Part shown: piece by piece, positions 1 through 20,355 of the stretch
How positions within the stretch are numbered: the stretch's first letter is position 1
Layout of the letters: each line of letters opens with the position of its first letter
Assembly: GCA_003567955.1 (NCBI GenBank)
Contig: PWYF01000231.1
Span: 1-42,512 of the forward strand
Direction of reading: 5' to 3'
DNA: 42,512 nt
DNA from: Thiotrichales bacterium
GTDB lineage: Bacteria > Pseudomonadota > Gammaproteobacteria > UBA5335 > SLRW01
Translations under genes and position numbers: made by a program
Notes under the pieces: model-generated
What the model was told of the DNA's origin: nothing
Databases searched by the model: none
The model's input: only the letters and a program-made list of their open reading frames with translations

Positions 1-2
1 CG

Positions 3-341
3 CAGCAGCCACCCGACGGCGCGCCGGGTGAAGTCGTGGACGTACGACAATTTAACAACAGCGAAGCCATGCTGAACTGGCTGGGGACCCGGTCGATTGA
101 TCCCGGGGCCGTGGGGCTCGTGGGCGGGCAGTTTCTGACTGCGGAAATGCTGACCGAGATCAGCCACAAAAGCGGCCTGGAACAATTACCGCATGCCCCT
201 GAACCACCGGGGTATTACGACAGCCAGAGCGGCGCGGCGATCAGCCACTTCCTGAGCCAGCCGGGCCCGCAATACCTGCTGCATGTGAACGGCGAATGCG
301 GCGGCGCGCGCCTGGCTGTCATGCTCGTGCGCCGGCTTTAA
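3..341 (+). CDS. hypothetical protein, C-terminal part (5' end outside window)
   Basis: The frame of ORF 36..341 stays open back to nt 3, so the gene probably starts left of the window. I recognise no motif. Confidence 0.35.
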   Translation, partial: QQPPDGAPGEVVDVRQFNNSEAMLNWLGTRSIDPGAVGLVGGQFLTAEMLTEISHKSGLEQLPHAPEPPGYYDSQSGAAISHFLSQPGPQYLLHVNGECGGARLAVMLVRRL

Positions 342-369
342 TCATTCCTCACGTCTCAGAGAGTTCTTT

Positions 370-635
370 AAGGAAACGCTGATTAATTCGTCACGTCTCA
401 GCGGGTCCTGCGGCGTCCATATGCAAGGCGCCGTGCGCAGTCGAAGGCTGGTTGCCTTTGCAAGCACGGCAACGCCGCAGATGGGCGCCGCAGGACCCGC
501 CCTTCGGGGCTTTGCCAGCAGGCCAGTCTCTGCGTTGCGCCTTTTCACCGTATTCTCGATACGCTTTCAAAGTCGCGCCTTGATTCTGGCCTGCTGGCAA
601 AGCCTGAGGCGCGACGAATTAATCAGCGTTTCCTT
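370..635. repeat. structured nested-palindrome element (MITE-like or structured-RNA-like)
   Basis: Outer 32-bp inverted repeats at 370-401 and 604-635 match at 30/32 positions. There are two inner perfect stems: 401-415 with 486-500 (15 bp) and 509-526 with 586-603 (18 bp). The motif cacgtctcag also occurs at 349-358. Confidence 0.6.
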
Positions 636-1641
636 TAACCTCGTCGCTGTGCAGCCACTGGCGCAGTTGCGCCCACACCTCGGCCTCGCGCGCCGAACAA
701 TCCCGCAATAAATCCGCCAGGGTTTCTATGTTCATGTCGCTGCGCTTGCGACTGACCCGGGCCGCCGCCAGCGCAAACTCACGCCAGCGATCACCCGCGG
801 CCGTCAGAGCCGTGGCGGCATCAGCCAGGGCCTGGCTGTCCAGCTTTTCCGCCGACTCCTGCAGAAAAGAGGCATAGAGGAAGCGAAACCCGGCGCCGCC
901 GGTGCCGATTTCCTCCTGCATGCGCACGATGTGGGCCAGGTACAGAGGCAGACGCTTGCGAGCATCACGCCGGCGGCTGGTGCGAATGAGATTGTCCGCC
1001 AGGTAGCGAATCCCGCGCACACCCAGCACCCGGAATGGCGCGTGTGCCATGATTTTTTCGTTGAGCCGGATCGCGGCCGGGACCTTGCTGGCGTAGTCGA
1101 TTTCCTGTGGCACATGTACCGGATAGTAGAGCAGGCCTTTGGCCGCCAGCGCCCCTTTGGCAAAACGCGCGCGCTGCAAGTCCGCAGCGGGGCAGCGCAC
1201 CGGCGCCTCGAACACCGGATCACTGATCAGATAATCATCGCCCTCGCGGCCATAGACGAGCAGGTTGTGCGCATTGAAGTGAAAGCGCATTTCATCCGGA
1301 AAGTAGGGCAACCAGAAAACAGAGGTCTGCAGGCCCACAACCCGGCCTTCATCGAGCAGCCGGTCCAGCGCCGCCATGCCCCGCTTCTGGTTGCGGAATG
1401 TCTTTGACGCAAACCGCACGCCCAGACGCTTGCTGGCCTTGCGGATAATCCAGCGCGGCGGCATGCGATAAGCGATCAGGGGCATGCCGCCGATCTTGAC
1501 GAAGGGCAGATAGGCGAAGCTCAGGGCGCTGGCCAGGCCAAAGGCCATGGGCTCACTGATTGGCAAGCCATGATGACTGAGCATGGCCGAAACCACACCG
1601 CTTTCACAGTGAGCCGCCTGGCGGTGGCAAAATTCGCTCAT
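619..1641 (-). CDS. BtrH N-terminal domain / DUF4872-like protein (papain-fold, ACP-dependent acyltransferase-like)
   Basis: The N-terminal HRQAAHCESGVVSAML motif resembles the catalytic-Cys region of BtrH_N family proteins. The protein is 340 aa. Its start overlaps the upstream gene's stop by 4 nt. It is the last gene of the minus-strand dar operon. Confidence 0.6.
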   Translation of the reverse strand: MSEFCHRQAAHCESGVVSAMLSHHGLPISEPMAFGLASALSFAYLPFVKIGGMPLIAYRMPPRWIIRKASKRLGVRFASKTFRNQKRGMAALDRLLDEGRVVGLQTSVFWLPYFPDEMRFHFNAHNLLVYGREGDDYLISDPVFEAPVRCPAADLQRARFAKGALAAKGLLYYPVHVPQEIDYASKVPAAIRLNEKIMAHAPFRVLGVRGIRYLADNLIRTSRRRDARKRLPLYLAHIVRMQEEIGTGGAGFRFLYASFLQESAEKLDSQALADAATALTAAGDRWREFALAAARVSRKRSDMNIETLADLLRDCSAREAEVWAQLRQWLHSDEVKGNAD

Positions 1642-2057
1642 AAATCACGACTCCGGCGCGCGGGCAGTCGGGTGAGTGTGGCTACATCAAGGCCCAGCGC
1701 CTCGGCGTAGCGTTGCAGAATACGGCGCGGCAAGCGCGCAAAGCGGCTGGGGTCAAAGTGGCGACGCACCCGCCAGCGCCAGATACCGCTGGCCCCGGCC
1801 AGCAGGGGCACATCCATGCGCCGGTCATACATATGCACTTCCAGCGGCGAAGTCAGACCGTTGTGAGCCCGCAACCAGGCCTCGTCACGCAGCGTCTCGA
1901 ACTCTTCAATAGCCAGCCGGGTAGCCTCGGATTCAGCCTCCCAGCCCTGTGATTGCACGCCGGTATAGTGACCGGCATCGTCCACGGCATAGACCAGTTT
2001 ACGATGGCCGCCGTAGGTGCTGCGCTCGGCATCCTGGGGGACTTCCCGACGCTGCAT
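1638..2057 (-). CDS. hypothetical protein, possible helix-turn-helix segment
   Basis: 139-aa ORF packed between darB-like (1-nt gap) and BtrH-like (4-nt overlap). Segments MDVPLLAGASGIWRWRV and ILQRYAEALGLDVATLTRL look HTH-like. No firm family assignment. Confidence 0.45.
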   Translation of the reverse strand: MQRREVPQDAERSTYGGHRKLVYAVDDAGHYTGVQSQGWEAESEATRLAIEEFETLRDEAWLRAHNGLTSPLEVHMYDRRMDVPLLAGASGIWRWRVRRHFDPSRFARLPRRILQRYAEALGLDVATLTRLPARRSRDL

Positions 2058-2058
2058 T

Positions 2059-3213
2059 TCAGACCACCGTCAGGCACATGAAACAGGTGGAGAATCGCCC
2101 GCTCTCGGGGATATAACAAAGCACCCGCTGACCCGGCTCAAGCTTGCCCGAATGAAACAGCTCTTCCAGCATGATATAGATCGACGCCGAGCCGGTGTTG
2201 CCCTTCCACGGCAAATTGGTAAACCAGCGCTCGAAGGGAATCGGCATGCCGGCATTTTGCAGGCCCTCAAGCACTTTCTCGCGGAAATAGCCGGAGGAAT
2301 AATGCGGCACGAACCAGTCGAAATCATCCGCCTCGACCCGGTGTTTGTCACGCAGCATACGCACCGCGCGCTCCACTGAATATTCCACAATATGCTCGTT
2401 GAGCAGTTTCACATCCTGTTTGATCGCCATCACCGACTGCGCGGCCCGCTCGCGCTGGGAATGCAGCAGCCAGCTGCGCAGCCGGCGATCCTCGCCCTTG
2501 GTGGCGCCGGCATACATACAGGTTTCCATCTCGCCGGCGTAGGACACCAGCTCCATCCAGTCCACCCGCAAGCTCACCGGCCCGGGGCCGGGTTGAGGCT
2601 GTAACAGCACAGCACCGGCGCCATCGGAGAGCATCCAGCGCAGAAAATCCTTTTCAAAGGCCAACTCGGGCTGCTTTTCCAGCGCCTGCACCAGGGCCTC
2701 GTTCTCGGCCTCGTAGTTAACCGATCGCAACATCGCCGAGGCCAGCTCCGAGCCGGTGGCCACAGCGTTGTCATGCAGGCCCGAGAGCACCGACATCCAG
2801 GCGTAACGAAACGCCCCCATGCCGGCCAGACAGATCCCGGCATTGCTGACGACCTCACAGGCCGGCAGGCCGAGTTCGCCATGCACCATCAGACCATGGC
2901 CCGGCGCCAGCTGGTCCGCCACAGTGGTCCCGCAAGCCAGGCTCTGGATTTGCGCCAGATCAAATCCCTCACCCACCAGCCCGCGCACGGCCTCGGCGGT
3001 CAGCGTGGCATTGGTATGTGTGTATTCCAGGGTTTCGGGGTCAATCGCATAGTGGCGACTCTGGATGCCATTACTGCGCAACACGGTGCGCCGGGCGCGC
3101 GAGGGGCGTTCGCCCACCTGGCCCAGAATCCGCTCCATGTCGTCATTACCCACCGGCTCATTGGGCAGACAGGCCGCCACGCGGGTGACAAATACGTCTC
3201 TGGCAGAACTCAT
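2059..3213 (-). CDS. darB: FabH-like beta-ketoacyl-ACP synthase III (DarB-type dialkylresorcinol synthase)
   Basis: KAS III features are present: NAGICLAGMGAF (Cys region) and C-terminal WKGNTGSASIYIMLEE. The protein is 384 aa. It overlaps the DarA-like gene by 4 nt. Confidence 0.75.
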   Translation of the reverse strand: MSSARDVFVTRVAACLPNEPVGNDDMERILGQVGERPSRARRTVLRSNGIQSRHYAIDPETLEYTHTNATLTAEAVRGLVGEGFDLAQIQSLACGTTVADQLAPGHGLMVHGELGLPACEVVSNAGICLAGMGAFRYAWMSVLSGLHDNAVATGSELASAMLRSVNYEAENEALVQALEKQPELAFEKDFLRWMLSDGAGAVLLQPQPGPGPVSLRVDWMELVSYAGEMETCMYAGATKGEDRRLRSWLLHSQRERAAQSVMAIKQDVKLLNEHIVEYSVERAVRMLRDKHRVEADDFDWFVPHYSSGYFREKVLEGLQNAGMPIPFERWFTNLPWKGNTGSASIYIMLEELFHSGKLEPGQRVLCYIPESGRFSTCFMCLTVV

Positions 3214-4166
3214 GTGTTGTTATTTCCGGCTTCTCCGGCCTCCCCGGAGGGGGCCGCATAATAGGCCCTTTGCCGGGCAGTACGCCCGCGCATCAGGGGT
3301 GCGATCAGCCGCTTGATGATCGCCGTTACGGGCACCACGGTGATAATCATGGTGACAAGAAACACCACGTAAAGTGCCAGCACCAGCCGCCGCTGCGGGC
3401 TGCCCGGGCGGCCCACACGCCGCAAAAGGGCGCCCCAGAGGCGGAAACTGCGGTGCGCGATACGCTCCGAGGCAATCAGGCGTTCGTTAATTTTAACAGC
3501 CCCCAGCCCCCGCAGCATAGGTGAGTCGTCGTCATCTGCGCGCTCGGGCAGCTGTCGGGCGATAGCCTCACCAAAGCGTGAAGCGGCCCTGATTTCGCCG
3601 GCTTCAATACCCGCTGCCGGCACCAACCCGCCCAGAAAGGGTCCGCGCCGGCCGGTGAGCATCCAGGCCGGGGTGGAAATAAAAGTCGCCGCGCTATGCG
3701 AGGAATCCGTCAACACCACATTGTCCACCAGCCGCGCATCCAGCTCACGCAGGCGCTGCTTGAATGTCTCCTGCGCCATCAGCCACATGTTGCGGCAACC
3801 AATCAGTGTCATCACCCGCCTGCCCCGCACCAGCCGCCGGCCACGCTCACTCTGGAGAAAGGCGGTGATGGGCATGGCCGGCGACAGAAACCAGACCTGC
3901 CAGGCGAGGATCACCAGGTCATAGTCGCCATCCTCGGGCAGGGCGCTTTCATCAATCGGCGCCGGGTCTTCATGCACGGTCTCGGGGAAAGTGTCGAAAA
4001 AGCGCCAGAAAGACCAGGGAAAGGGAAACGGCTCCACAGGGCGCAAGGGCACACGCGTCACCACGATCTGCGACGATTGCTCCAGGGGCGCCAGCACTGA
4101 ATCGAGCAGCGCGTCAAGCTGCCCGGTCTGTGACCAGCCGACTGCCAGCACCTTTTTCGCCGTCAT
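3210..4166 (-). CDS. darA: DarA-like dialkylresorcinol condensing enzyme partner
   Basis: 318 aa with a flavodoxin-like N-terminus (KKVLAVGWSQTGQL) and a C-terminal TM helix (LVLALYVVFLVTMIITVVPV). It sits immediately upstream of and coupled to the FabH-like gene, as in darAB loci. The family call is from memory. Confidence 0.5.
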   Translation of the reverse strand: MTAKKVLAVGWSQTGQLDALLDSVLAPLEQSSQIVVTRVPLRPVEPFPFPWSFWRFFDTFPETVHEDPAPIDESALPEDGDYDLVILAWQVWFLSPAMPITAFLQSERGRRLVRGRRVMTLIGCRNMWLMAQETFKQRLRELDARLVDNVVLTDSSHSAATFISTPAWMLTGRRGPFLGGLVPAAGIEAGEIRAASRFGEAIARQLPERADDDDSPMLRGLGAVKINERLIASERIAHRSFRLWGALLRRVGRPGSPQRRLVLALYVVFLVTMIITVVPVTAIIKRLIAPLMRGRTARQRAYYAAPSGEAGEAGNNNT

Positions 4167-4462
4167 GATTCGCTCTCCTGATCAAGCTTCAGTCGCCCGC
4201 GCACCAGCAACTGCTGATCACGCCGGCAACTGAAACTCACCGTATCACCGCCTGGCTCGCCGAGCTCAATATCAAATTGTTCCCCGGGGTACAGCGGCTG
4301 CATGAACTTGACCTTCTTCAGCCCGGTAATGTTCACAGTCGACAGTTGTGCGCGCGCATGCGAGAGCACTGCGCCCAGAATCACCACCGCCGGCACCACC
4401 GGATGGCCCGGAAAATGCCCCGGTAACGCCGGATGGTCTGCCGCTATTTGCGTTTGCATCAT
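4163..4462 (-). CDS. small hotdog-fold 3-hydroxyacyl-ACP dehydratase (ApeI-type)
   Basis: Motif DHPALPGHFPGHPVVPAVV. I prefer the ATG at 4462 (MMQTQ, preceded by gaggcagg) over the ORF-track start at 4591. It overlaps darA-like by 4 nt. Confidence 0.7.
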   Translation of the reverse strand: MMQTQIAADHPALPGHFPGHPVVPAVVILGAVLSHARAQLSTVNITGLKKVKFMQPLYPGEQFDIELGEPGGDTVSFSCRRDQQLLVRGRLKLDQESES

Positions 4463-4682
4463 ACCTGCCTCTGTCCACCCTGTTGCCCACCGGGGCCGTG
4501 CTGGAACAGGATAGTCAACACTGGCCTGATGGCGCCATGTTCTATAGGATAACGGCACCAGATTGAAAACCCGGCCCATGCCGTCGCGCATCCGCCCCGG
4601 GGCCGGGGCGCAAAACTAATCGATTGAGGCGTTACTGTACAGAGACGGCATGGCCGCATGTGCTGTCGCGGGTTAAGAGACT

Positions 4683-4934
4683 ATGGACAACAATCGCGAA
4701 CAAATCATGAACGAGCTGACCCGGATTCTGGTCGAGATGTTCGAGGTCGACGAGGACGAGGTTGTCCCCGAGGCCCGCCTGTACGAGGATCTGGACATAG
4801 ACAGCATTGATGCCATCGACATGGTGATCCGGCTCAAGGAAATTACCGGCAAGAAGGTCTCGCCCGAGGATTTCAAGTCCGTACGCACGGTCGAGGACGT
4901 GGTCGAGGCCACCATGAAATTGCTCGAGAACTGA
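4683..4934 (+). CDS. acyl carrier protein
   Basis: 83 aa. DLDIDSIDAIDMV contains the DS phosphopantetheine attachment motif. Confidence 0.9.
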   Translation: MDNNREQIMNELTRILVEMFEVDEDEVVPEARLYEDLDIDSIDAIDMVIRLKEITGKKVSPEDFKSVRTVEDVVEATMKLLEN

Positions 4935-5497
4935 TGGCGCGTTTGCTTGGCCCGCTGTTTGTTATTGTTGCCGCGGGCTATCCACTGCTGGTGTATTTTT
5001 CCCTGGATCATCTGCCCCCCGCCGCGATGGCGCTGATCCTGCTCGCGCTTGCTGTCACCCGCCTGGCCCTGTGGGGCCGCCTTCCGGGCGATCGCCTGCT
5101 CCTGGTGACCGGCATCGTGGCCATGGTGGCCGTGGCGGTAATCACGCTGCTCAGCAACAGCAAGGAGGGTCTGCGTTATTACCCGGTGGTGATCAATGCT
5201 GCCATGCTCGTGCTCTTTGCCTGGTCTCTGACCCAGCCCCGCACCATTATCGAGCGCCTGGCGCGCCTGTTCGAACCGGAGCTGCCGCCCGAGGGGGTGG
5301 CGCATACCCGCCAGGCCACCTGGGCCTGGTGCGTATTTTTTACCCTCAATGGCAGCATTGCCCTGTGGACCGCAATCGCCGCAAGCTGGGAAATCTGGAC
5401 ACTTTATAACGGGCTGATTGCCTATATCCTCATGGCCATGCTGTTTGCCGGCGAATATGCCCTGCGCCAGCACCGCAAAAGGAGACTGGCCTCTTGA
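4934..5497 (+). CDS. small integral membrane protein of APE clusters (COG4648-like)
   Basis: 187 aa with several hydrophobic helices. Its ATG overlaps the ACP stop codon by 1 nt. The position matches the membrane protein conserved next to the ACPs in APE loci. Confidence 0.6.
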   Translation: MARLLGPLFVIVAAGYPLLVYFSLDHLPPAAMALILLALAVTRLALWGRLPGDRLLLVTGIVAMVAVAVITLLSNSKEGLRYYPVVINAAMLVLFAWSLTQPRTIIERLARLFEPELPPEGVAHTRQATWAWCVFFTLNGSIALWTAIAASWEIWTLYNGLIAYILMAMLFAGEYALRQHRKRRLAS

Positions 5498-7194
5498 AGC
5501 CGGATTTCACCCGACTGCAAAGCTTGCACCTGGTCCGGCGTGAGGATGCCCAGGTGCTGTTTGTGCATGAAGAGCGCGAAATCACCTGGCCGCAATTGCT
5601 GGCCGATGTTGCCGCCTTGCGCGTCCGCCTGGCTGACTCGCCGGCGCGCGACTGGGCGGTATTTGAGGAACAGGCCTACCCCTTCAGCGTGGCATTGCTG
5701 GCCCTGCTGGGCAGCGGCCGGCGACTCTGGCTCCCCGCCAATGCCACCGCAGAAACCGCCGAACGTCTGAGCCGGCACTGCGGGGGCTGGCTGGGCGCGC
5801 AATGGCCCGGGGGCACCCCCGTACCGATCGCTCAGAAGCATCCGGCCGAAGCGCTTTCACCCCTTAGCGGGGAGGTGGTGGTATTTACATCCGGCTCGAC
5901 CGGTGAGCCCAGGGCTATTACCAAAAAACTGCACCAGCTCGACGCCGAAGTGGCCTCGCTGGAACAACTCTGGGGCGAACAACTTGGAGACGCACAAATT
6001 CTGGGCACGGTCAGCCACCAGCATATCTACGGTCTGCTGTTCCGGGTCTTGTGGCCACTGTGCGCCGGGCGCACCAGCCACAGTGAGATGCTGCCCACAG
6101 TCGAGAGCGTGCTGACCCGGGCCGGGGTTTGCGCGCACGCCGCCTGGGTCAGCAGCCCGGCACATCTGCGCCGCCTTGAAAATACAGCGCCGTGGTCAGG
6201 GGCCCGCTCAAAACTGGCTGCCATTTTCAGTTCGGGCGGCCCGCTGCCAGCGGAATCCGCCACTCAATGTTATGAGTTAAGTGGCCACTGGCCGATTGAG
6301 GTATTTGGCAGCTCTGAAAGCGGCGGCATCGCCTGGCGCACCCAGGCTGACGGCAATCGCCTGTGGACCCCGCTGCCGGGGGTGGAAACCGCAGCCGCCG
6401 ATGACGGCCGGCTGCAATTGCGTTCCCCCCACTTGCCGGATCAGCAATGGCTGCGCATGGATGATGCCATCACTCACGAGCAGGACGGCCGTTTCTCGCT
6501 CGGCCCCCGGCTTGACCGTATCGTCAAGGTTGAAGGCAAGCGGCTGGCGCTGCCGGAACTGGAACAATGCCTGGAGGCCCATGAATGGCTCAGCGAAAGC
6601 CGTGCACTGCTGCTGCGCCGCCGGCGCGAAACCGTGGCCGTGGTGGCGGTCCCCAGCCCCGGCGGACAACAGGCGCTGTCGTCGCTGGGCCGTCATGGCT
6701 TTGCCCGGCAATTGCGCGCATCGCTGCAAGCACACTTCGAGCCCGTCACCTTGCCGCGGCTATGGCGTTTCGTCGATCAGTTGCCGGTCAACAGTCAGGG
6801 CAAGGTGAGCCAGCAAACCCTGGCGGCGCTGTTCGAGCGTCACACGAACGGCACCATGCCCCCGGCGCAGCTCCTGCACAAGGATGCCGAATCGGCTGAA
6901 CTGCGCCTGGAAATCACCCCGGAGCTGGCCTGCTTCGAGGGCCATTTCCGTGATATGCCGATTGTCCCCGGCATGGCCCTCGGCGGCTGGGCCGAGTATC
7001 ATGCCCGCCAGCGCCTGCCGGTACACGGCGATTTCCGTCGCTTGCAGAAACTGAAATTCCGCCGTCTGGTCCGCCCGGGACAGACATTACGCCTGCAGCT
7101 CACGTACAATCAGGCTCGCACAAGCGTTATCTGGCGCTTTGAAAATGAAGCCGACGGCACGATATGTGCCTCGGGTGAACTGGTATACGAATAA
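5494..7194 (+). CDS. AMP-dependent aryl-acid:ACP ligase fused to a C-terminal hotdog dehydratase domain
   Basis: Adenylation motifs are FTSGSTGEPRAITKK, GPRLDRIVKVEGKRLALPELE and NSQGKV. The C-terminal ~110 aa carry CFEGHFRDMPIVPGMA (HFxxxPxxPG hotdog motif). The TTG start at 5494 overlaps the upstream stop by 4 nt and has aggag upstream. Confidence 0.8.
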   Translation: MKPDFTRLQSLHLVRREDAQVLFVHEEREITWPQLLADVAALRVRLADSPARDWAVFEEQAYPFSVALLALLGSGRRLWLPANATAETAERLSRHCGGWLGAQWPGGTPVPIAQKHPAEALSPLSGEVVVFTSGSTGEPRAITKKLHQLDAEVASLEQLWGEQLGDAQILGTVSHQHIYGLLFRVLWPLCAGRTSHSEMLPTVESVLTRAGVCAHAAWVSSPAHLRRLENTAPWSGARSKLAAIFSSGGPLPAESATQCYELSGHWPIEVFGSSESGGIAWRTQADGNRLWTPLPGVETAAADDGRLQLRSPHLPDQQWLRMDDAITHEQDGRFSLGPRLDRIVKVEGKRLALPELEQCLEAHEWLSESRALLLRRRRETVAVVAVPSPGGQQALSSLGRHGFARQLRASLQAHFEPVTLPRLWRFVDQLPVNSQGKVSQQTLAALFERHTNGTMPPAQLLHKDAESAELRLEITPELACFEGHFRDMPIVPGMALGGWAEYHARQRLPVHGDFRRLQKLKFRRLVRPGQTLRLQLTYNQARTSVIWRFENEADGTICASGELVYE

Positions 7195-7268: not shown

Positions 7269-8849
7269 TTGACCAGACCGCATAACAACCCTTCTGCTTT
7301 CGTTGCACCTCTGGCGGACGGCCCCGTGCTGTTTGATGGCAGTGCGCTCAGCGCTGCGCAAATTGCAGCCATCGCCCGCGGCGAGCGCGGCAGCGCCCTG
7401 TCCGACAATCCGGAGTTCGTCCGGCGCATTGACCGGGGGGCCGAATTTCTTGATCGCCTGTGGCAGGAAGAAGGCGTCATTTACGGTGTGACCACCGGTT
7501 ATGGCGATTCGTGCAGCGTCAATATCCCGCCGCATCTGGTCGAGGAATTACCCCGCCACCTCTACACGTTCCACGGCTGCGGCATGGGCGAGATATTCTC
7601 ACCGGTACAGACCCGCGCCATTCTCGCCGCCCGTCTCGCCAGCCTGGCCCGGGGTTATTCCGGGGTGCGTTATCTGTTGCTGCAACAATTGCACCGTCTG
7701 CTGGCCGAGGACATCCTGCCTGTCATCCCCCAGGAAGGTTCGGTCGGCGCCAGCGGGGATTTGACCCCGTTGTCCTATGTCGCAGCGGTACTGGCAGGGG
7801 AACGCGAGGTGCTCTACCAGGGCGAGCGCCAGCCCACCGCCGAGGTATTCAGACAGCTTGGCATCGAACCCCTGGTGCTTCGGCCCAAGGAAGCACTGGC
7901 GGTGATGAATGGCACGGCTGTGATGACCGGCCTGGCCTGCCTGGCCCTGGTCCGTGCCCGTTATCTGTGCCTGCTTTCGGCCCGCATCACCAGCCTGGCC
8001 GTCCTCGCCATACAGGGCAATGCCGGCCACTTTGAACCCCGCCTGTTCGAGGTCAAACCGCATCCGGGGCAGGGGCGTATCGCGCGCCTCATCCACGAAG
8101 ACCTTGGTGGCAGCAGCAACGAACGACAGAGCTCACGCCTGCAGGACCGCTACTCCCTGCGTTGTGCTCCACACGTGATCGGTGTAGCCGAGGACAGCCT
8201 GCCCTGGCTGACGGAGATGGTGGAAACCGAACTCAACAGCGCCAACGACAACCCCATCATCGACCCCGAACAGGAACGCGTGCTGCATGGCGGGCACTTT
8301 TACGGCGGCCATGTGTGTTTTGCCATGGATGCACTCAAGAATACCGTGGCCAATATCGCCGACTTGCTCGACCGTCAGCTCGCCCAGTTGGTAGACCCCA
8401 AATTCAACCATGGCCTGCCCGCCAATCTCACCGGGGCCACGGGAGAACGCCAATCCCTGAACCACGGCTTCAAGGCCGTACAGATCGGCACTTCGGCCTG
8501 GGCCGCCGAAGCCCTCAAGCTGACCATGCCGGCCAGCGTGTTCTCACGCTCCACCGAATGCCATAACCAGGACAAGGTGAGCATGGGCACCATTGCCGCC
8601 CGTGACTGTCTGCGGGTGCAGACCCTTACCGAACAGGTGGCTGCGGCCACTCTGATGGCGGCCTGCCAGGGCTTGCGTCTGCGCCAGCGAGAAGGGCTTG
8701 ATACGGCGACACTGACCCCGGGCGTCAAACACACCCTGGCGGAAATCGACGCGCTTTTCCCGCTGCTGGAGGAAGACCGCCCGCTGGAGGCCACCCTGCG
8801 TGAAGTCTGCCAGCAGATTCGCAACCGGGGGTTCGAGCTGGATGAGTGA
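7269..8849 (+). CDS. MIO-dependent aromatic amino acid ammonia-lyase (HAL/TAL/PAL family; tyrosine ammonia-lyase suspected from context)
   Basis: GSVGASGDLTPLSY contains the Ala-Ser-Gly MIO triad. TTGYGDS is near the N-terminus. The protein is 526 aa, with a TTG start and ggaga upstream. Confidence 0.85.
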   Translation: MTRPHNNPSAFVAPLADGPVLFDGSALSAAQIAAIARGERGSALSDNPEFVRRIDRGAEFLDRLWQEEGVIYGVTTGYGDSCSVNIPPHLVEELPRHLYTFHGCGMGEIFSPVQTRAILAARLASLARGYSGVRYLLLQQLHRLLAEDILPVIPQEGSVGASGDLTPLSYVAAVLAGEREVLYQGERQPTAEVFRQLGIEPLVLRPKEALAVMNGTAVMTGLACLALVRARYLCLLSARITSLAVLAIQGNAGHFEPRLFEVKPHPGQGRIARLIHEDLGGSSNERQSSRLQDRYSLRCAPHVIGVAEDSLPWLTEMVETELNSANDNPIIDPEQERVLHGGHFYGGHVCFAMDALKNTVANIADLLDRQLAQLVDPKFNHGLPANLTGATGERQSLNHGFKAVQIGTSAWAAEALKLTMPASVFSRSTECHNQDKVSMGTIAARDCLRVQTLTEQVAAATLMAACQGLRLRQREGLDTATLTPGVKHTLAEIDALFPLLEEDRPLEATLREVCQQIRNRGFELDE

Positions 8850-9866: not shown

Positions 9867-12177
9867 CCTCTGGCCGGGGCTGATGGCCCTGGCCGGCGTC
9901 GTGCTGCTCATGCAGCTTGGCAGCGGCGCCCGGCTGCAAACCGACCTGCATGCCTTGCTGCCGGACGGCCCGGGTGACCCCGGCGTGGTCGCGGCCCGCC
10001 AACAACTGACTGAACCCTTTGCCCGCGCCACCCTGTGGCTGACCGGCGCCCGCAGCCCGGGCGAGGCCGCCAGCGCCGCCCATGAACTGGCGACAAGACT
10101 GGATGACAGCGGTCTGTTCAGTGAAATCCACACCGAAATTGACAGCACCCCCATGCGCGAAGCCTGGCGGGAGCTGCTGGCGTGGCAGCAGGTATTGCTG
10201 GCCCCCGCGGATGCCCGGGCCCTGCGGGATGATCCCGAGACCTTTGTGCAGCACCGGCTGACCGAACAATACGGCCTGGCAGGCGAAACCGGAATCGTGC
10301 GGCTGGCCGAAGACCCGCTGGGTCTGTTCCGGCGTTACCTGTCGCCCATGCTGGAAAGTCCGGGCGCCGCCGTGGTCGATGGCATGATGATTGTGGACGC
10401 CTCGGCCGAACGGGACGAGGAATACTACTTTGCCGTATTGCATGCCAGCGTGGCCGAAGCCGCCTTCGCTGTCAGCATGGACCCCCCCTTGCTGGCGCTG
10501 TGGCAGGAGGCCATTGAATGGGCGGCGCAGGAAAATATCACCCTGCATGTCACCGGCGCACCGGTTTTTACCGCCTGGGGTTCCGCCAGCGCCAGTCGCG
10601 AAATCACCCTGATCGGCGGGGTTTCCCTGCTCGCCATTGTGGCGCTGCTGCTGTGGCGTTTTCGCTCGCCGCGGCCATTGTTGCTGACCCTCACGGTGAT
10701 TGGCGCCGGGCTGCTCGGCGGCCTCGCAACCAGTCTGCTGGTTTTCGGTCAACTGCACCTGATCACTCTGGTCTTTGGCGCCACTGTCATCGGCGTCTCG
10801 GTGGATTACGCCTTTCATTACCTGTGTGACAGCCTGCGCCCGGACTGGACCCCGCAGCAGGGCCTCCGGCATGTCCTGCCGGGGCTGCGCCTGGCGCTGG
10901 TGACCAGCGTACTGGCTTTTCTGTCGCTGGCCATCGCCCCATTCCCGGCCCTGCGGCAGGTGGCCGTATTTACCGCCAGCGGCCTGATCTTCAGCTGGCT
11001 GACCGTAGTCTGGCTGCTGCCCCTGCTGACCCGCCCGGCCCGCGCCGCCGCACCCCGGATGCGGCTGCCCGTGCGGCGTATCCGCTGGGTCTGGATCTGC
11101 CTGGCACTAATGGCCGCATGCCTGCCCGGGCTGTTCATGCTGGAAGCGCGTGATGATATTCACCTGCTTTATGCCGCCCCTGAAAGACTGCTGGCGGACG
11201 ACCGCCTGATCGGTGACCTGCTGCAGCGCACCGAAGGCAGTTATTTCATCCTCGTCAGCGCGGCCGACGAAGAAACCCTGCTGCAACGCCAGGAGGCCCT
11301 TTTGCCCGGGCTTGAGGCCCTGCGCGAGGAGCAACATCTACAAGCTTATCGGGCGCCGGTGCAGGTGATTCCTTCACGCCGGCAGCAAACGGAAAACGCC
11401 GCGCTGACCAGCCAACTGGTCAGCAGCGGCCTTCTGACAAGTTATATGGCACAGTTGGGGCTGGGCGAGGACCACGCCCGGACCCATGAAGCCCGGATGA
11501 GCGCCCCGCCGCAGTGGTTGCCTGTCGAAACCGCACTGCGTCATGTTGACCCGCGCTATCGTCAGCTCTGGCTGGGCTGTGATGACGAGGCCTGTCGCGC
11601 CCTGGTCACGGTGCAGGGGCTGGGAGATGATGCTGAACCGGCGCTGGAAGCACTGGCTGCGGAACATCCCGGCGTGCAATGGGTCAATTATGTCGGGGAT
11701 ATCAGCCAGGGCATGCGCGAACATCGACGCCTGAGCCTGGTGCTGCTGGCGCTGGCGCTGGTGGTGGCCACCGCAGTCCTGGCGCTGTTGCTGGGCTTGC
11801 GCCAGGCGCTGAGAGTCATCAGTGTCCCGGTCATGGCCATCATGGTGAGTCTGGCCATCGTCGGCTACAGTGGCGCGCTGTTCAGTGTGTTCAACCTGAT
11901 GGCCCTGCTGCTGATTGCCGGTGTAGGCATTGACTACGCCCTGTTTTACCATTGCGCCGACCGTGACGGCCGACGCAGTGCCGGGCTGGCGATCACGATG
12001 GCGGCGACCACCACGGTCCTCGCCTTCGGGCTGCTGGCCTTTTCCAACACCCCGGTAATCAGCGCCTTTGGTATCACGCTGGTGCCGGGACTCGTGGCCG
12101 CCTGGCTGCTGGCGCTGCTGGCCCGGCCACCCGAAGCTTCTGGCACAGGAGAAATACCGGATGAGCCATCCGTATGA
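9844..12177 (+). CDS. MMPL/RND-superfamily exporter (COG4258-like)
   Basis: About 780 aa with two blocks of multiple TM helices separated by soluble loops. The start is uncertain: GTG at 9844 or ATG at 9883. The ORF-track start at 9751 would lie deep inside the LolA-like gene. Confidence 0.75.
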   Translation: MSARLRRSLWPGLMALAGVVLLMQLGSGARLQTDLHALLPDGPGDPGVVAARQQLTEPFARATLWLTGARSPGEAASAAHELATRLDDSGLFSEIHTEIDSTPMREAWRELLAWQQVLLAPADARALRDDPETFVQHRLTEQYGLAGETGIVRLAEDPLGLFRRYLSPMLESPGAAVVDGMMIVDASAERDEEYYFAVLHASVAEAAFAVSMDPPLLALWQEAIEWAAQENITLHVTGAPVFTAWGSASASREITLIGGVSLLAIVALLLWRFRSPRPLLLTLTVIGAGLLGGLATSLLVFGQLHLITLVFGATVIGVSVDYAFHYLCDSLRPDWTPQQGLRHVLPGLRLALVTSVLAFLSLAIAPFPALRQVAVFTASGLIFSWLTVVWLLPLLTRPARAAAPRMRLPVRRIRWVWICLALMAACLPGLFMLEARDDIHLLYAAPERLLADDRLIGDLLQRTEGSYFILVSAADEETLLQRQEALLPGLEALREEQHLQAYRAPVQVIPSRRQQTENAALTSQLVSSGLLTSYMAQLGLGEDHARTHEARMSAPPQWLPVETALRHVDPRYRQLWLGCDDEACRALVTVQGLGDDAEPALEALAAEHPGVQWVNYVGDISQGMREHRRLSLVLLALALVVATAVLALLLGLRQALRVISVPVMAIMVSLAIVGYSGALFSVFNLMALLLIAGVGIDYALFYHCADRDGRRSAGLAITMAATTTVLAFGLLAFSNTPVISAFGITLVPGLVAAWLLALLARPPEASGTGEIPDEPSV

Positions 12178-16881: not shown

Positions 16882-17619
16882 ATGCATCCTCTGCGCTTCG
16901 CCATCAGCCACTGGGCGGCCTGGGCCCCGGGCGTGGAGACCCGTGCCGACTGGCAGCAATGGCTGGTCGAAGGTGGTCAGGTGGATGCAATCCCGACCGA
17001 ACCGGACAAGCCCCGCCTGGATTTCATGCCGCCCATGCTGCGCCGACGCGCCAGCCGGGTCAGCCGCGCCGCATTGCGTGTGGCGTGGGAATGCAACGAA
17101 CCGGACCACAACACCCGCATGATCTTTGCCTCACGTCACGGCGAATTGCATCGCAGCAGTGAGCTGCTGGCCGATCTCGCCCGTGAACAACCACTGTCAC
17201 CCAACGCCTTCAGCCTGTCGGTACACAATAGCGCCGCCGGCCTGTATTCCATTGCCACCGGCAATCGCGCAGGGGCCACGGCCCTGGCCGCCGGAATGGA
17301 CAGCCTGCCGAGCGCGATCATTGCCGCTGCCGGTTATCTGCAGCGCGGCGAATCCGCCGTGACCGTGGTTATGGCCGATGAACGTCCGCCTGAATTTTAT
17401 CGCCGCTGGGCCGACTACCCTGTGGGCGTTTTTGCCCTGGGTCTGCGCCTGGTGGCGGCAGATGAGTCTGCCGGCTGGCGTTTGTGTGGCACTGAAGATG
17501 CACCCCGCACATCAACCTCACTGCCCGTCGAGATCGCGCTGCTCTCCATGCTGGCCGGCGATGTCGAACATCTCACTGTAGCGGGCGAAAATCACCGCTG
17601 GCTCTGGGAACGCAATTGA
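16882..17619 (+). CDS. KS-like protein lacking active-site Cys (chain-length-factor type, ApeC-like)
   Basis: 245 aa. The N-terminus FAISHWAAWAPG is typical of the truncated KS N-terminal-like proteins of APE loci. I see no CxS KS active-site motif. Confidence 0.65.
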   Translation: MHPLRFAISHWAAWAPGVETRADWQQWLVEGGQVDAIPTEPDKPRLDFMPPMLRRRASRVSRAALRVAWECNEPDHNTRMIFASRHGELHRSSELLADLAREQPLSPNAFSLSVHNSAAGLYSIATGNRAGATALAAGMDSLPSAIIAAAGYLQRGESAVTVVMADERPPEFYRRWADYPVGVFALGLRLVAADESAGWRLCGTEDAPRTSTSLPVEIALLSMLAGDVEHLTVAGENHRWLWERN

Positions 17620-18392
17620 AGTCACTCAATTACTACTGGCGGCTGCTGGCCACCGGCTATAACTTTGTCAGCTTTGGCATTGGTGCGCTGATTTTCAGTC
17701 TGACCATCATGCCGGTGGTGCGCCTGTGGCCCGGCAGCCGTGAGCGGCGCGAAGCCCGCGCACGCCAGGTCATTCATCTGGTGTTCCGGCTGTTCGCCTG
17801 GCAAATGCGCATGAACGGGGTGCTTTCCCTGAGCGCCGAGGATGTGCAACGATTGCGCCGGGAAGCCGCCGGCCGGGTGGTCATCGCCAACCATCCCTCG
17901 CTGGTTGATGTAGTACTGCTGATATCATTGCTGCCGCGCAGTGGTTGCGTGGTCAAACAGGCCATGTGGCGCAACCCCCTGACCTACGGCATGGTCCAGG
18001 GCGCCGGCTTTATCAGCAATGCCAGTGACTCGGCCACGCTGCTGGAGCGCAGCAAACGCGTACTCGACGCCGGAGATCCGCTGGTGGTGTTCCCTGAAGG
18101 CACGCGCACGGTGCGCGGCGAGCCCGTAAAATTCCAGCGTGGCGCGGCCAATATCGCGGTGCGTAACAATGCGGAAATACTGCCGGTGGTGATTCGTAAC
18201 GCGCCGCCCACACTGAGTAAACAGGAGCGCTGGTACAACATACCGCCAGAGAAAACCCGTTACACCATCACGCCGCAGGATCCAATCCGCATTGAAGATG
18301 TCGTGGATGCCAGCGGCGGCCCGGCGCTGACAACGCGGCGCCTGAACCGTTATCTTGAAAACTATTACAGGAGCATACTTGCCAATGAGTGA
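17616..18392 (+). CDS. lysophospholipid (PlsC-type) acyltransferase
   Basis: HX4D motif NHPSLVD and a FPEGTRT motif. There is an N-terminal TM segment. The TTG start overlaps the upstream stop by 4 nt. Confidence 0.8.
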   Translation: MKSLNYYWRLLATGYNFVSFGIGALIFSLTIMPVVRLWPGSRERREARARQVIHLVFRLFAWQMRMNGVLSLSAEDVQRLRREAAGRVVIANHPSLVDVVLLISLLPRSGCVVKQAMWRNPLTYGMVQGAGFISNASDSATLLERSKRVLDAGDPLVVFPEGTRTVRGEPVKFQRGAANIAVRNNAEILPVVIRNAPPTLSKQERWYNIPPEKTRYTITPQDPIRIEDVVDASGGPALTTRRLNRYLENYYRSILANE

Positions 18393-18645
18393 CCTGGCGC
18401 AGGAAATAAAAGAACTGATTATCGATTGTCTGGATCTTGAGGACATCACGCCCGACGACATCGGCGACGATGACCCGTTGTTTGTGGATGGCCTGGGGCT
18501 GGATTCCATCGATGCCCTGGAACTGGGCATGAACATCCAGAAAAAGTACAACATCAAGCTCGATGCCAATGACGAGGCCAACAAGGAACACTTTGCCTCG
18601 GTCAGTGCCCTGCGCCGGTTCATCGAAAGCCACCAGGCCGGCTGA
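18385..18645 (+). CDS. acyl carrier protein (second copy)
   Basis: GLGLDSIDALELG Ser attachment motif. I prefer the ATG at 18385 (MSDLAQEIK), which overlaps the acyltransferase stop. Confidence 0.85.
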   Translation: MSDLAQEIKELIIDCLDLEDITPDDIGDDDPLFVDGLGLDSIDALELGMNIQKKYNIKLDANDEANKEHFASVSALRRFIESHQAG

Positions 18646-18675: not shown

Positions 18676-20355
18676 TTGGCATTCAGGCCCTGCCTTGTTG
18701 TGCCCTGCTACAACCACAGCCGCCAGTTGCGCGATACCCTCGCCGCACTGGCGGCAACGGGCCTGCCATGCCTGCTGGTCGATGATGGCAGCGACAGCGA
18801 CAATGCCCGCGCCCTTGAAGCGCTGGCCGATGAACACGACTGGCTGGAGCTGGCCCGGCTGCAACGCAACCGTGGCAAGGGCGTAGCGGTGATACACGGC
18901 ATGCGCCTGGCCGCCAGCCGGGGCTACACTCACGCCCTGCAAATTGATGCCGACGGCCAGCATGATCCGGCCGACATCCCCGCCCTGCTTGAAGCCGCCC
19001 GCGCCGAACCCGAAGCCCTGATCAGCGGCCGCCCGCGCTATGGCGACGACATCCCGCGCGCGCGCCTGTACGGGCGCTACCTCACTCACGCCATGGTCTG
19101 GCTGCAAACCCTGTCGTTCTCGATCAAAGACTCCATGTGCGGTTTTCGTGTCTATCCGCTGGCGCCGACGCTGGCGCTGCTGGAGCGCAGCCGGGTCGGC
19201 CGGCGCATGGATTTCGACACCGAGATCATGGTGCGGCTTTACTGGCAGGGCACCCCGGTGCGCTTTGTAGATACCCGTGTGGTGTATCCGCCGGGCGGGG
19301 TTTCGCACTTCGCCGTACTCGCTGACAACCTGCGCATCACCGCCATGCATACCCGTCTGGTGCTGGGCATGTTGTGGCGGCTGCCGCGGTTGCTCAGAGG
19401 CCGCCACGACGTACAACACTGGTCCCATCAGCCCGAACGCGGCAGCTGGTGGGCCCTGTGGCTGGTCTTCCAGATTTACCGCCTGCTCGGCAGCCGGGTC
19501 ATCAAGCTGCTGCTGTATCCGATGATCGGCTATTTTTTTCTCACCAACCGGGAAGCACGCCAGACCTCGCGTGATTTCCTGCAACGGGTGCATGAGCAGG
19601 GCGGGGCACTGCCCCGGGCGCCGGATAACCGTCTGGTCTACCGCCACCTGTACAGTTTCGGCGACGCTATCGTGGACCGCCTGGCCTGCTGGCAGGGGCG
19701 ACTGCGCCACGAACATATGCGTTTCCACAACCAGCGTCTGTTGCTTGACCAGCGCGACAGTGGTCAGGGCGCGGTGATTCTCACCTCCCATCTGGGCAAC
19801 ATGGAAATGACCCGCGGGCTGATGACCGACATCGAGTTCATCAAGCTCAACGCGCTGGTCTACACCCGCAACGCCGCGCATATCAATGACATTATCCGCC
19901 GCAACAACCCGCGCGCCGGCAGTGACATCATTGATATCGCCCATTTCGGCCCCCAGACCGCACTGGTGCTGGATGAAAAAATCCGCCGCGCCGAGTTCAT
20001 TGCCATCGCCGCGGATCGCACCCCGCCCGGTCAACAATCCCGGCTGATGCCGGCGCGCTTTCTGGGCGAGGAGGCCCTGTTTCCGGCCGGGCCCTTTATT
20101 GTCGCCTCGCTGTTGCATTGCCCGGTGTATTTCATGAGCTGCATCAAGCATGACGACGGCATTTACGATATTGAAGTCAAACCCTTCGCCGAGCGTATTA
20201 ATCTGTCACGTGCCCGGCGGGAAGCGGACCTGGCCGGCTGGATCCAGCAATACGCCGATGAACTGCAGCAGCTGGCCTTGCGCGCCCCCCTGCAATGGTT
20301 CAACTTTTATGACTTCTGGGCCGGAACCGGCCACGAGGAGGCACCGGAGCCATGA
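18676..20355 (+). CDS. family 2 glycosyltransferase fused to LpxL/HtrB-like lipid acyltransferase domain
   Basis: The N-terminal half has VVPCYNH, VDDGSDSDN and QIDADGQHD (GT2 DxD). The C-terminal half has SHLGNMEM (HX4E, as in lipid A late acyltransferases). The start codon (TTG at 18676) is uncertain. Confidence 0.7.
   Translation: MAFRPCLVVPCYNHSRQLRDTLAALAATGLPCLLVDDGSDSDNARALEALADEHDWLELARLQRNRGKGVAVIHGMRLAASRGYTHALQIDADGQHDPADIPALLEAARAEPEALISGRPRYGDDIPRARLYGRYLTHAMVWLQTLSFSIKDSMCGFRVYPLAPTLALLERSRVGRRMDFDTEIMVRLYWQGTPVRFVDTRVVYPPGGVSHFAVLADNLRITAMHTRLVLGMLWRLPRLLRGRHDVQHWSHQPERGSWWALWLVFQIYRLLGSRVIKLLLYPMIGYFFLTNREARQTSRDFLQRVHEQGGALPRAPDNRLVYRHLYSFGDAIVDRLACWQGRLRHEHMRFHNQRLLLDQRDSGQGAVILTSHLGNMEMTRGLMTDIEFIKLNALVYTRNAAHINDIIRRNNPRAGSDIIDIAHFGPQTALVLDEKIRRAEFIAIAADRTPPGQQSRLMPARFLGEEALFPAGPFIVASLLHCPVYFMSCIKHDDGIYDIEVKPFAERINLSRARREADLAGWIQQYADELQQLALRAPLQWFNFYDFWAGTGHEEAPEP

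Follow-up and report, generated by a model that had tools for sequence, protein, structure and literature searches.

In the window analysed here (the whole stretch of DNA, 42,512 nt, contig PWYF01000231.1), two adjacent minus-strand genes, darG and darH, quite possibly provide the two subunits of an acyl-transfer enzyme of the dar module that depends on a carrier protein and whose likeliest reaction in this organism would be the formation of a polyene-to-resorcinol ester. What supports this is membership of the family, the fold, a conserved triad, the linkage of the genes and a favourable complex prediction; from there we infer that the enzyme depends on a carrier protein, which molecules serve as donor and acceptor, and what a basic helix of DarG does. 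It should be noted that darGH in this window is an ordinary, already named gene pair in its standard context. The pair was listed in the dar clusters of Azoarcus and Chitinophaga in 2014 (PMC3949708; naming according to PMC12968099) and the family already bears the name DarH acyltransferase, so the gene is not an unrecognised one. In the literature we found neither experimental work on the function of DarH or DarG nor a paper assigning the enzyme that joins polyene to resorcinol. The new elements are the fold match with CtaG, CcbD and AziU3, the prediction of a DarG-DarH complex, the co-occurrence in gammaproteobacteria and the part of the module carried by contig C107. The features concerned are the following:

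3..341, plus strand: final 112 codons (C-terminal part) of a conserved ORF of the dar module (~295 aa), convergent with darH
367..638, strand not applicable: nested inverted repeats separating the convergent genes; the final codons of darH and its stop codon overlap the outer arm
619..1641, minus strand: darH, 340 aa, BtrH_N + DUF4872; putative carrier-protein-dependent Cys12-His125-Asp141 transacylase
1638..2057, minus strand: darG, 139-aa partner protein, NF053536
2059..3213, minus strand: darB, StlD/DarB-family ketosynthase (resorcinol ring cyclase), NF005293 with 586.4 bits (cut-off 450)
3210..4166, minus strand: darA, putative aromatase partner of DarB
4163..4591, minus strand: FabA/ApeI-like hotdog dehydratase, first gene of the dar operon, PF07977 with 24.3 bits and a weak ApeI-like match; start codon uncertain
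4683..4934, plus strand: ACP, first gene of the divergent aryl-polyene operon, PF00550 with 42.4 bits; candidate acyl donor carrier
17616..18392, plus strand: PlsC-type acyltransferase, PF01553 with 64.5 bits and a TIGR00530 match; alternative candidate for polyene transfer
18355..18645, plus strand: second ACP of the aryl-polyene operon, PF00550 with 38.1 bits; candidate acyl donor carrier
18676..20355, plus strand: fusion of GT2 and a lipid-A-acyltransferase-like domain, PF00535 with 63.2 bits and PF03279 with 28.4 bits; alternative candidate for polyene transfer

The two ORFs of 340 and 139 aa described in the initial annotation are both present, and the gene upstream of them, read there as a DarB-like KAS III, is indeed a StlD/DarB ketosynthase; the narrower resorcinol_DarB model gave 484 bits with it, under its cut-off of 550. 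The same annotation linked DarB to the 340-aa gene through 4-nt overlaps. This holds for darG/darH (ATGA, 1638-1641), but the stop codon of darB (2059-2061) and the start codon of darG (2055-2057) are 1 nt apart. Other 4-nt overlaps join darA to darB (3210-3213) and the hotdog gene to darA (4163-4166). No family match for darA appeared in Pfam or NCBIfam. In 67 of 80 loci the gene immediately preceding darB is 38-66% identical to it, and homologues of the hotdog gene occupy the equivalent position in 8 of the 80. The dar operon is divergent from an aryl-polyene operon primed by a tyrosine ammonia-lyase. An ORF at 4673-5473 on the minus strand and several other minus-strand ORFs within the polyene operon, all of them devoid of family matches, were taken as spurious because they overlap plus-strand genes that do have such matches. 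In the intergenic repeats, the arms pair at 367-401/604-638 (91% complementary), 401-424/477-500 (92%) and 508-526/586-604 (100%).

The truncated ORF at the start of the window has its N-terminal part at the end of contig C107 (L084 6212-6758); in loci L002, L004, L006, L007, L009, L011 and L076, homologues of the two halves adjoin each other, with the same frame direction. Contig C107, which abuts the window, carries an ABC ATPase, an ABC-2 permease, the ACP DarC and the ketosynthase DarD. The missing ABC-DarC-DarD part of the dar module is supplied by this contig.

The DarH product starts with MSEFC-HRQAAHCESGV, and the BtrH_N-type region that had been recognised in this N-terminus was confirmed by the profile searches: PF14399 BtrH_N covers residues 11-142 (168.5 bits) and PF16169 DUF4872 residues 154-326 (178.2 bits), both far above their gathering scores. 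Furthermore, the protein reached 485.3 bits (cut-off 300) with the NCBIfam equivalog NF053550, "BtrH-related acyltransferase DarH", with residues 3-326 aligned to positions 1-324 of the 325 in the profile, and the search of the whole genome gave the same result; the acyltransferase activity in the name of this family is itself a prediction. The search for a conserved cysteine and a Cys-His pair was likewise positive, since in 40 diverse DarH homologues (27-57% identity) Cys12, in the HCESG motif, and His125 are invariant; Asp141 is conserved in at least 90%.

The AF2 model of DarH (pLDDT 95.8) had its best structural match in AziU3 (Z 25.4 over 309 residues, 16-17% identity), and it also matched CtaG (Z 24.4, 295 residues, rmsd 3.4) and CcbD (Z 21.6, 305 residues); the modelled fold would therefore place DarH among the carrier-protein-dependent transacylases. 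The PDB sequence search with DarH or its profile returned only designed coiled coils, and AziU3 at E 0.4. CtaG (closthioamide), CcbD/LmbD (lincosamides) and BtrH (butirosin) are thiotemplated papain-like ligases. In CtaG, which passes acyl groups from one carrier protein to another, the triad is Cys11/His128/Asp144 (PMC12865890), and CcbD follows a carrier-protein-dependent ping-pong with Cys-His-Glu (PMC12945683). Like DarH, both present a papain-like N-domain and a helical C-domain, with about 300 residues aligned, and the sequence identity of DarH with them is just 9-13%. Compared by residue number, the triad positions C11/H128/D144 of CtaG run parallel to C12/H125/D141 of DarH, and the spacing from His to the acid is 16 residues in both. 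There are also differences. The ligases of the CtaG/CcbD/BtrH type use amine acceptors and make amides; the product of DarH would be an ester with a phenol. To our knowledge, the characterised relatives of DarH are all amide-forming or, in the case of AziU3, aziridine-forming, and acylation of a phenol is known for none of them. A small XRE-like partner has been reported for none of CtaG, CcbD/LmbD and BtrH. CcbD binds its carrier protein at an Arg cluster in the last helix; no obvious cluster of this kind is apparent there when the DarH sequence is read. AziU3, from the AziU2-AziU3 complex of azinomycin aziridine formation (PDB 8GS1, 7WUW), works in a heterocomplex with a second protein, as we propose for DarH, but it has been described as functionally unrelated and aziridine-forming (PMC12865890), unlike the role proposed here.

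The next tier of fold matches (Z ~12) comprises the N-domain only and includes C39/PCAT peptidase domains. Since C39 domains work together with their transporters, and ABC genes are found directly after darH in 32 of 73 loci, DarH could be seen as an export-associated processing enzyme acting with the ABC-2 transporter, or else as an enzyme that anchors the polyene or the resorcinol on a membrane lipid. It is generally held that aryl-polyene clusters fix their product in the envelope, and the one present here includes LolA-like, MMPL and DUF3261 genes. We consider this explanation improbable: the full-length matches are with soluble biosynthetic transacylases (Z 21-25 versus ~12 for the C39 tier), neither a DarH-transporter fusion nor a gene for a peptide precursor or substrate was evident among the 80 loci, and for lipid anchoring the cluster already has acyltransferases of the PlsC and LpxL types. 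An assignment of DarH as a C39/PCAT bacteriocin-processing domain was rejected; the alignment is restricted to the N-domain, and DarH, at 340 aa, stands as a protein of its own and has DUF4872 in addition.

Regarding the partner protein, the profile scores indicate that it is a member of the DarG family placed outside the flexirubin-specific equivalog, with 156.6 bits for the subfamily NF053536 DarG_fam (cut-off 70; residues 1-131 on positions 1-130 of 131) and 118.1 bits, under the cut-off of 170, for the equivalog NF053545 flexirubin_DarG. In its model (pLDDT 86.8), an N-terminal beta-hairpin and a long helix are followed by an XRE-like five-helix domain, and residues 93-100 form a conserved basic helix. 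Residues 65-135 align with many domains of the XRE/lambda-repressor type (Z 6-9.4, rmsd 2-3, a middling range for helical folds). The HTH-like segments attributed earlier to this protein find support at the level of the fold, but not in Pfam, where DarG had no match to any HTH family; the PDB sequence search with DarG gave nothing useful.

The complex prediction for DarG and DarH reached an ipSAE of 0.94, against 0.24 for the best control, values that express model confidence and not a measurement. In the benchmark, 58 of 80 solved complexes reached the mark for this score, and so did 2 of 110 mismatched pairs. Three runs shared at least 97% of the contacts, with a partner pLDDT of at least 90. 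In addition, darG immediately precedes darH in 79 of 80 loci and overlaps it at 57 of the 78 junctions that could be scored (38 of them by 4 nt), and there is one fused DarG-DarH protein of 482 aa (P0129), situated 304 nt from a contig end. Fusion as a common form was discarded (0 of 79 loci), and the long open frames seen by darH are mere stop-free stretches upstream of the gene. The initial annotation had offered the 139-aa protein as a regulator or an accessory subunit; the complex prediction, the overlaps and the fused protein favour the accessory subunit. AziU2 was absent from the DarG matches, whether by fold (Foldseek, VIA) or by sequence, and therefore AziU2 and DarG appear unrelated, an absence that is not proof of difference.

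It is very improbable that neither protein is biosynthetic, DarG being an XRE-type transcription factor of the locus and DarH a papain-like peptidase or toxin neutralised by DarG. The XRE-like alignment and the basic helix of DarG would fit such a system, as would some papain-like toxin/immunity pairs to which the DarH N-domain has weaker fold matches. However, besides the missing Pfam HTH match, part of the helix-turn-helix face of DarG (residues 79-91) lies inside the predicted interface with DarH, the enzymes HEPD and HppE contain the same fold as a domain that does not bind DNA, and darGH keeps a fixed place in the darAB operon across many phyla, unlike mobile toxin-antitoxin pairs.

If DarG and DarH act together in acyl transfer, the reaction would follow a ping-pong course, in which the acyl chain of an ACP thioester would pass to Cys12 with the assistance of His125 and Asp141, and would then be removed by a nucleophilic acceptor. 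The N-terminal hairpin and the long helix of DarG are predicted to span, like a clamp, the cleft that separates the two domains of DarH, near the active-site loops, leaving exposed the basic helix, which may dock an acidic carrier protein. In this organism, the finished aryl-polyene would be released from its ACP onto a phenolic hydroxyl of the dialkylresorcinol, giving an ester of the flexirubin/arcuflavin type. We regard as possible, though somewhat doubtful, that DarG-DarH is the first two-subunit, ester-forming ligase of the CtaG/BtrH/CcbD class, with the XRE fold of DarG repurposed for carrier-protein docking or substrate gating. The joining of polyene to resorcinol is a reasonable job for DarGH among other possibilities, and two further acyltransferases in the cluster (17616-18392 and 18676-20355) could attach the polyene instead.

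The expected co-occurrence with darAB was observed. Most of the 80 related loci, distributed in many phyla, keep the order darA-darB-darG-darH (DarG in 79, DarB in 74, DarA in 67), and in two gammaproteobacterial samples DarH is adjacent in 49 of the 51 genomes with DarB. In the class sample, the 14 DarH genomes all have an adjacent DarB and a PF13723 match; in the Pseudomonadaceae sample, DarH is present in 35 of 36 DarB genomes and PF13723 in all 36. DarH is confined in these samples to genomes having both DarB and an aryl-polyene marker (49 of 49), and, among enzymes of the acyl-transfer type, it alone occurs in step with the resorcinol genes. The marker PF13723 is present in every sampled DarB genome (51 of 51), leaving no contrast between DarB genomes with and without polyene genes, and for this reason co-occurrence cannot single out the polyene. 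The earlier proposal of an esterification candidate therefore retains its domains, conserved Cys and His, linkage and fold, but its co-occurrence is not specific for the polyene and the family had already been named acyltransferase.

In fact, the association of DarGH with the ABC-2/DarC/DarD unit is at least as close as that with the polyene: darH lies within 6 kb of DarC in 62 of 73 loci and of DarD in 58, the ABC ATPase comes directly after it in 32, and in this genome the unit is found on the contig abutting the window. This would agree with an alternative that we consider unlikely, yet deserving of attention, in which DarG-DarH serves DarC and not the polyene, as a shuttle of acyl or beta-ketoacyl groups, in the release of a DarC-bound carboxy-cyclohexanedione left by DarB, or in the acylation of some acceptor with a chain built by DarC/DarD, followed by ABC-2 export. 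CtaG, a close structural relative, transfers acyl groups between two carrier proteins (PMC12865890). Two darAB-only loci (L082, L083) lack darGH as well as ABC, DarC and DarD, and in two Desulfobacterota MAGs DarGH and ABC-2 appear without DarB or clear polyene markers (L076, which also has DarC/DarD, and L032, which ends after the permease). Five non-gammaproteobacterial genomes (G405, G706, G707, G708 and G710, MAGs of unstated completeness) carry DarGH without clear aryl-polyene markers, with no match for ApeP-like or DUF3261 and none or a weak partial one for PF13723; G706 and G707 had no DarB match either. On the other hand, ketosynthases are normally self-priming, so there is no obvious need for a shuttle. 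In E. coli, DarA and DarB suffice for free dialkylresorcinols (PMC13748660; PMC3949708), and therefore DarGH is not required for the ring; DarB alone yields the free cyclohexanedione acid from SNAC thioesters (PMC13748660), so an extra release enzyme is not strictly required. Moreover, the polyene marker accompanies DarH in all 49 gammaproteobacterial genomes mentioned before, and without DarGH the ester-forming enzyme of the known hybrids is unaccounted for. In Azoarcus no free resorcinol was found, and the pigment is a polyene-resorcinol ester (PMC3949708). The location of the loci without darGH (L082, L083) apart from any polyene genes also favours the ester reading.

The locus resembles the dar sub-clusters of flexirubin and arcuflavin producers, where the pair corresponds to darG/darH in C. 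pinensis, '98'/'97' in F. johnsoniae and darD/darE (azo0291/azo0290) in Azoarcus sp. BH72. The same families, NF053536 and NF053550, occupy the same place directly after darA-darB, the module includes an ABC ATPase, an ABC-2 permease, the DarC ACP and the DarD ketosynthase (here on contig C107) and, as for flexirubin, the neighbour is an aryl-polyene cluster with an ammonia-lyase starter. Unlike in those sub-clusters, the ABC/DarC/DarD unit is convergent on darH instead of placed after it and the host is a gammaproteobacterial MAG; also, DarG does not reach the equivalog cut-off (118 vs 170 bits), in contrast to the flexirubin DarG of Bacteroidota.

If the proposal of DarG-DarH as ester synthase is true, the coupling step would be assigned for flexirubin, arcuflavin and the many polyene-resorcinol hybrids that have been predicted, those of HACEK bacteria among them. 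DarH as the coupling enzyme would extend a recently recognised class (CtaG, CcbD, BtrH) from amides to esters, and would provide a handle for engineering or blocking pigment assembly. Flexirubin-type pigments are chemotaxonomic markers. In a published Cellulophaga table the flexirubin-negative species are without G/H, and so is the sole KOH-positive strain (PMC12968099). We set this table aside as a natural experiment: its gene calls come from genome-wide BLASTP at E<1e-3, for which reason the 'darA/darB' calls may be FabG/FabH. Very many Gram-negative bacteria appear to encode polyene-resorcinol hybrids, and the related dar loci include those of the human-associated Aggregatibacter and Haemophilus (L075, L080).

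At the left end of the window, the minus strand carries a tightly packed operon of five genes, the dar operon:

4163-4591 (-), hotdog dehydratase gene
3210-4166 (-), 318-aa gene (DarA-like)
2059-3213 (-), 384-aa ketosynthase gene (darB), StlD/DarB family, 586 bits
1638-2057 (-), 139-aa gene (darG), NF053536, 157 bits
619-1641 (-), 340-aa gene (darH), NF053550, 485 bits

The translation of darH begins with MSEFC-HRQAAHCESGV, as the initial annotation had described, and the proposed domain check placed Pfam BtrH_N at residues 11-142 and DUF4872 at residues 154-326, with E-values near 1e-50. Of the 4-nt overlaps claimed to couple the genes, the one between darG and darH (ATGA) was recovered, but darB and darG are separated by a 1-nt spacer. 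The observation was confirmed, and darG and darH are ordinary members of families already named: their products exceed the cut-offs of the NCBIfam equivalog NF053550 “BtrH-related acyltransferase DarH” (300) and of NF053536 “DarG family dialkylresorcinol biosynthesis protein” (70). The flexirubin-specific DarG equivalog was not reached (118 bits vs a cut-off of 170). Although NCBIfam models exist for DarB, DarG and DarH, the DarA-like protein matched no Pfam or NCBIfam model; it is kept beside darB in 67/80 of the loci compared. In the work on the arcuflavin of Azoarcus sp. BH72, the pair is listed as darD/darE, a “conserved hypothetical” and a “BtrH-like peptidase” (PMC3949708), and the Chitinophaga naming, darG/darH, is used by PMC12968099. 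In the literature searched, no experiment on DarG or DarH was found.

An aryl-polyene operon is transcribed divergently from the dar operon, and comprises:

ACP; AMP-ligase fused to a hotdog domain; aromatic ammonia-lyase; thioesterase
ApeP-like dehydratases; ketoreductase; ketosynthases; PF13723 chain-length-factor-like protein
LolA-like protein; MMPL exporter; flavin halogenase; DUF3261 lipoprotein
PlsC-type acyltransferase; second ACP; GT2/LpxL-like fusion

The ammonia-lyase (7269-8849, +; 544 bits) and the tryptophan-halogenase-type flavin enzyme (12068-13411, +) point to a coumarate-type starter and, possibly, to a halogenated aryl head group.

The usual downstream half of the dar module was seemingly absent from the window, which is an entire contig of a 2.3-Mb MAG with 270 contigs. 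It was found on another contig of the same MAG, C107 (locus L084, genome G000, 1-6758), where an ABC ATPase, an ABC-2 permease, the DarC ACP and the DarD ketosynthase are encoded together with a 3'-open ORF. This last continues as a 5'-open ORF at window positions 3-341, and the whole ORF of about 295 aa matched no Pfam or NCBIfam family. Since in seven related loci the homologues of both ORF halves lie side by side and end directly after darH, C107 abuts the left end of the window and the dar module is complete. The ABC/DarC/DarD half thus converges on darH across a gap (367-638) filled by three nested inverted repeats, whose arms of 35, 24 and 19 nt are 91-100% complementary. The outer arm takes in the stop codon and final codons of darH, and the contig breaks off just past the repeats. 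They may act as a terminator, or they may be a repeat element that interrupted the assembly.

An AlphaFold2 model of DarH, built on a 40-sequence alignment with members 27-57% identical to the query, reached a pLDDT of 95.8. Over about 300 residues its fold matches AziU3 (Z 25.4), CtaG (Z 24.4) and CcbD (Z 21.6). At Z about 12 follow C39/PCAT peptidase domains, phytochelatin synthase and cathepsins, whose alignments are confined to the papain-like N-domain. In the alignment, C12 and H125 never vary and D141 is conserved to at least 90%. CtaG, a papain-like ligase with the triad Cys11/His128/Asp144, makes amide bonds that join carrier-protein-bound substrates, and BtrH and AsbE are cited as its homologues using carrier-protein-bound donors (PMC12865890); the His-to-acid spacing of DarH is likewise 16 residues. 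CcbD/LmbD follow a carrier-protein-dependent ping-pong mechanism with a Cys-His-Glu triad (PMC12945683). On the basis of the fold matches and the conserved C12, H125 and D141, DarH was classed as a putative carrier-protein-dependent cysteine transacylase.

The initial annotation had proposed DarG as a regulator or an accessory subunit. In the DarG model (pLDDT 86.8), a beta-hairpin (20-36) and a long helix (40-65) precede a five-helix bundle (71-128). For residues 65-135, nearly all top fold matches are XRE/lambda-repressor domains, an assignment that is only probable because their Z of 6-9.4 is middling for helical folds; the matches also take in the non-DNA-binding XRE-like domains of two enzymes, HEPD and HppE. 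That DarG/DarH act as a regulator or toxin is very improbable in our judgement. Overlapping genes, a natural fusion (P0129, below) and a complex prediction all link DarG physically to DarH. Of the 78 darG/darH junctions that could be scored, 57 overlap, by 4 nt in 38 cases. The DarG-DarH complex prediction scored 0.94 (best control, 0.24), a mark reached by 58/80 solved complexes and 2/110 mismatched pairs, with a possible memory effect of the solved AziU2-AziU3 complex, though AziU2 is unlike DarG in searches. The runs had at least 97% of contacts in common, with partner pLDDT of at least 90, and support the binding of DarG to DarH. The predicted interface on DarH includes triad-adjacent residues 8-10, 115-121 and 143-145 and C-domain helices 232-298. 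The conserved basic helix 93-100 of DarG is absent from the named interface, and might dock the acidic carrier protein. As a mechanism class, a two-subunit Cys-His-Asp transacylase is well supported, and we infer its dependence on a carrier protein.

Two unusual arrangements of the pair were observed. P0129 (L085, 305-1753) is a natural 482-aa DarG-DarH fusion, its DarG part 43% identical over residues 1-128; on its 134-kb contig, 304 nt separate the gene from the end, and non-dar genes are downstream. In a Sulfurovum MAG (L028, 7595-10978), a roughly 2-kb AMP-ligase-like gene lies between darG and darH, the sole split pair among the 80 loci.

Across 400 gammaproteobacterial genomes, DarH above cut-off was found in 14, DarB in 15 and the polyene marker PF13723 in 88 (three of them unpublished, G039, G141 and G296, all without DarB/DarH; no claim depends on them). 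In 14/14 DarH genomes DarB adjoins DarH and PF13723 matches. Among 301 Pseudomonadaceae genomes, 36 carry DarB, 35 of these with an adjacent DarH and all 36 with PF13723. Furthermore, the order darA-darB-darG-darH is mostly kept in the 80 loci, which come from many phyla and include Campylobacterota, Desulfobacterota, Verrucomicrobiota, Acidobacteriota, Spirochaetota, Aggregatibacter and Haemophilus. The two sampled genomes with DarB and no DarH, both gammaproteobacterial, have bare darA-darB loci distant from the polyene genes (G144 contig 17, L082, 8552-10669; G573, L083, 8532-10626). In their vicinity no darG, darH, ABC genes, DarC-type ACP or DarD was found, and the aryl-polyene marker is present elsewhere in the genome; these strains may be free-resorcinol producers.

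In E. coli, DarA and DarB suffice to make free resorcinols (PMC13748660), and Azoarcus contains none in free form, its resorcinol being bound to the polyene as an ester (PMC3949708). Together with the distribution, these results fit the proposal of the initial annotation that DarH joins the polyene-ACP thioester to the resorcinol hydroxyl. An O-acyltransferase DarGH of this kind is the best single hypothesis for this locus, which we hold tentatively. The samples give no contrast for the polyene link, since no DarB genome in them lacked the polyene marker. Moreover, the polyene cluster encodes two other acyltransferases, which counts against a polyene-specific role, and we know of no phenol acylation by characterised DarH relatives.

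DarGH tracks the ABC-2/DarC/DarD unit no less closely than the polyene: DarC lies within 6 kb of darH in 62/73 loci, and the unit is absent along with DarGH from the darAB-only loci. In five non-gammaproteobacterial MAGs with DarGH (G405, G706, G707, G708 and G710), PF13723 is absent or weak and partial, no ApeP-like or DUF3261 match was found and, in G706 and G707, no DarB match; because their completeness is unstated, the markers are not proven to be lacking, but the finding recurs. The function of DarGH might instead centre on the DarC/DarD carrier system of the module itself, a reading more doubtful than polyene transfer to the resorcinol. The loci of these MAGs show DarG-DarH with an ABC-2 transporter: in a Desulfocapsa MAG (L032, 4969-9148) it is accompanied by a methyltransferase, the locus ending after the permease, and in a Syntrophaceae MAG (L076, 8936-10327) by DarC/DarD. 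The other neighbours are unrelated genes, and for L032 and L076 neither darA/darB, in the locus or the rest of the assembly, nor a clear aryl-polyene marker was found. Export-linked or lipid-anchoring roles are unlikely; the remaining probability we assign to roles not yet thought of.

In the HACEK group, Aggregatibacter segnis (L075) and Haemophilus sp. (L080) carry the full darA-B-G-H-ABC-DarC-DarD module beside aryl-polyene genes. Their native product may be a polyene-resorcinol hybrid, and not just the free resorcinols described in recent reports of heterologous expression.
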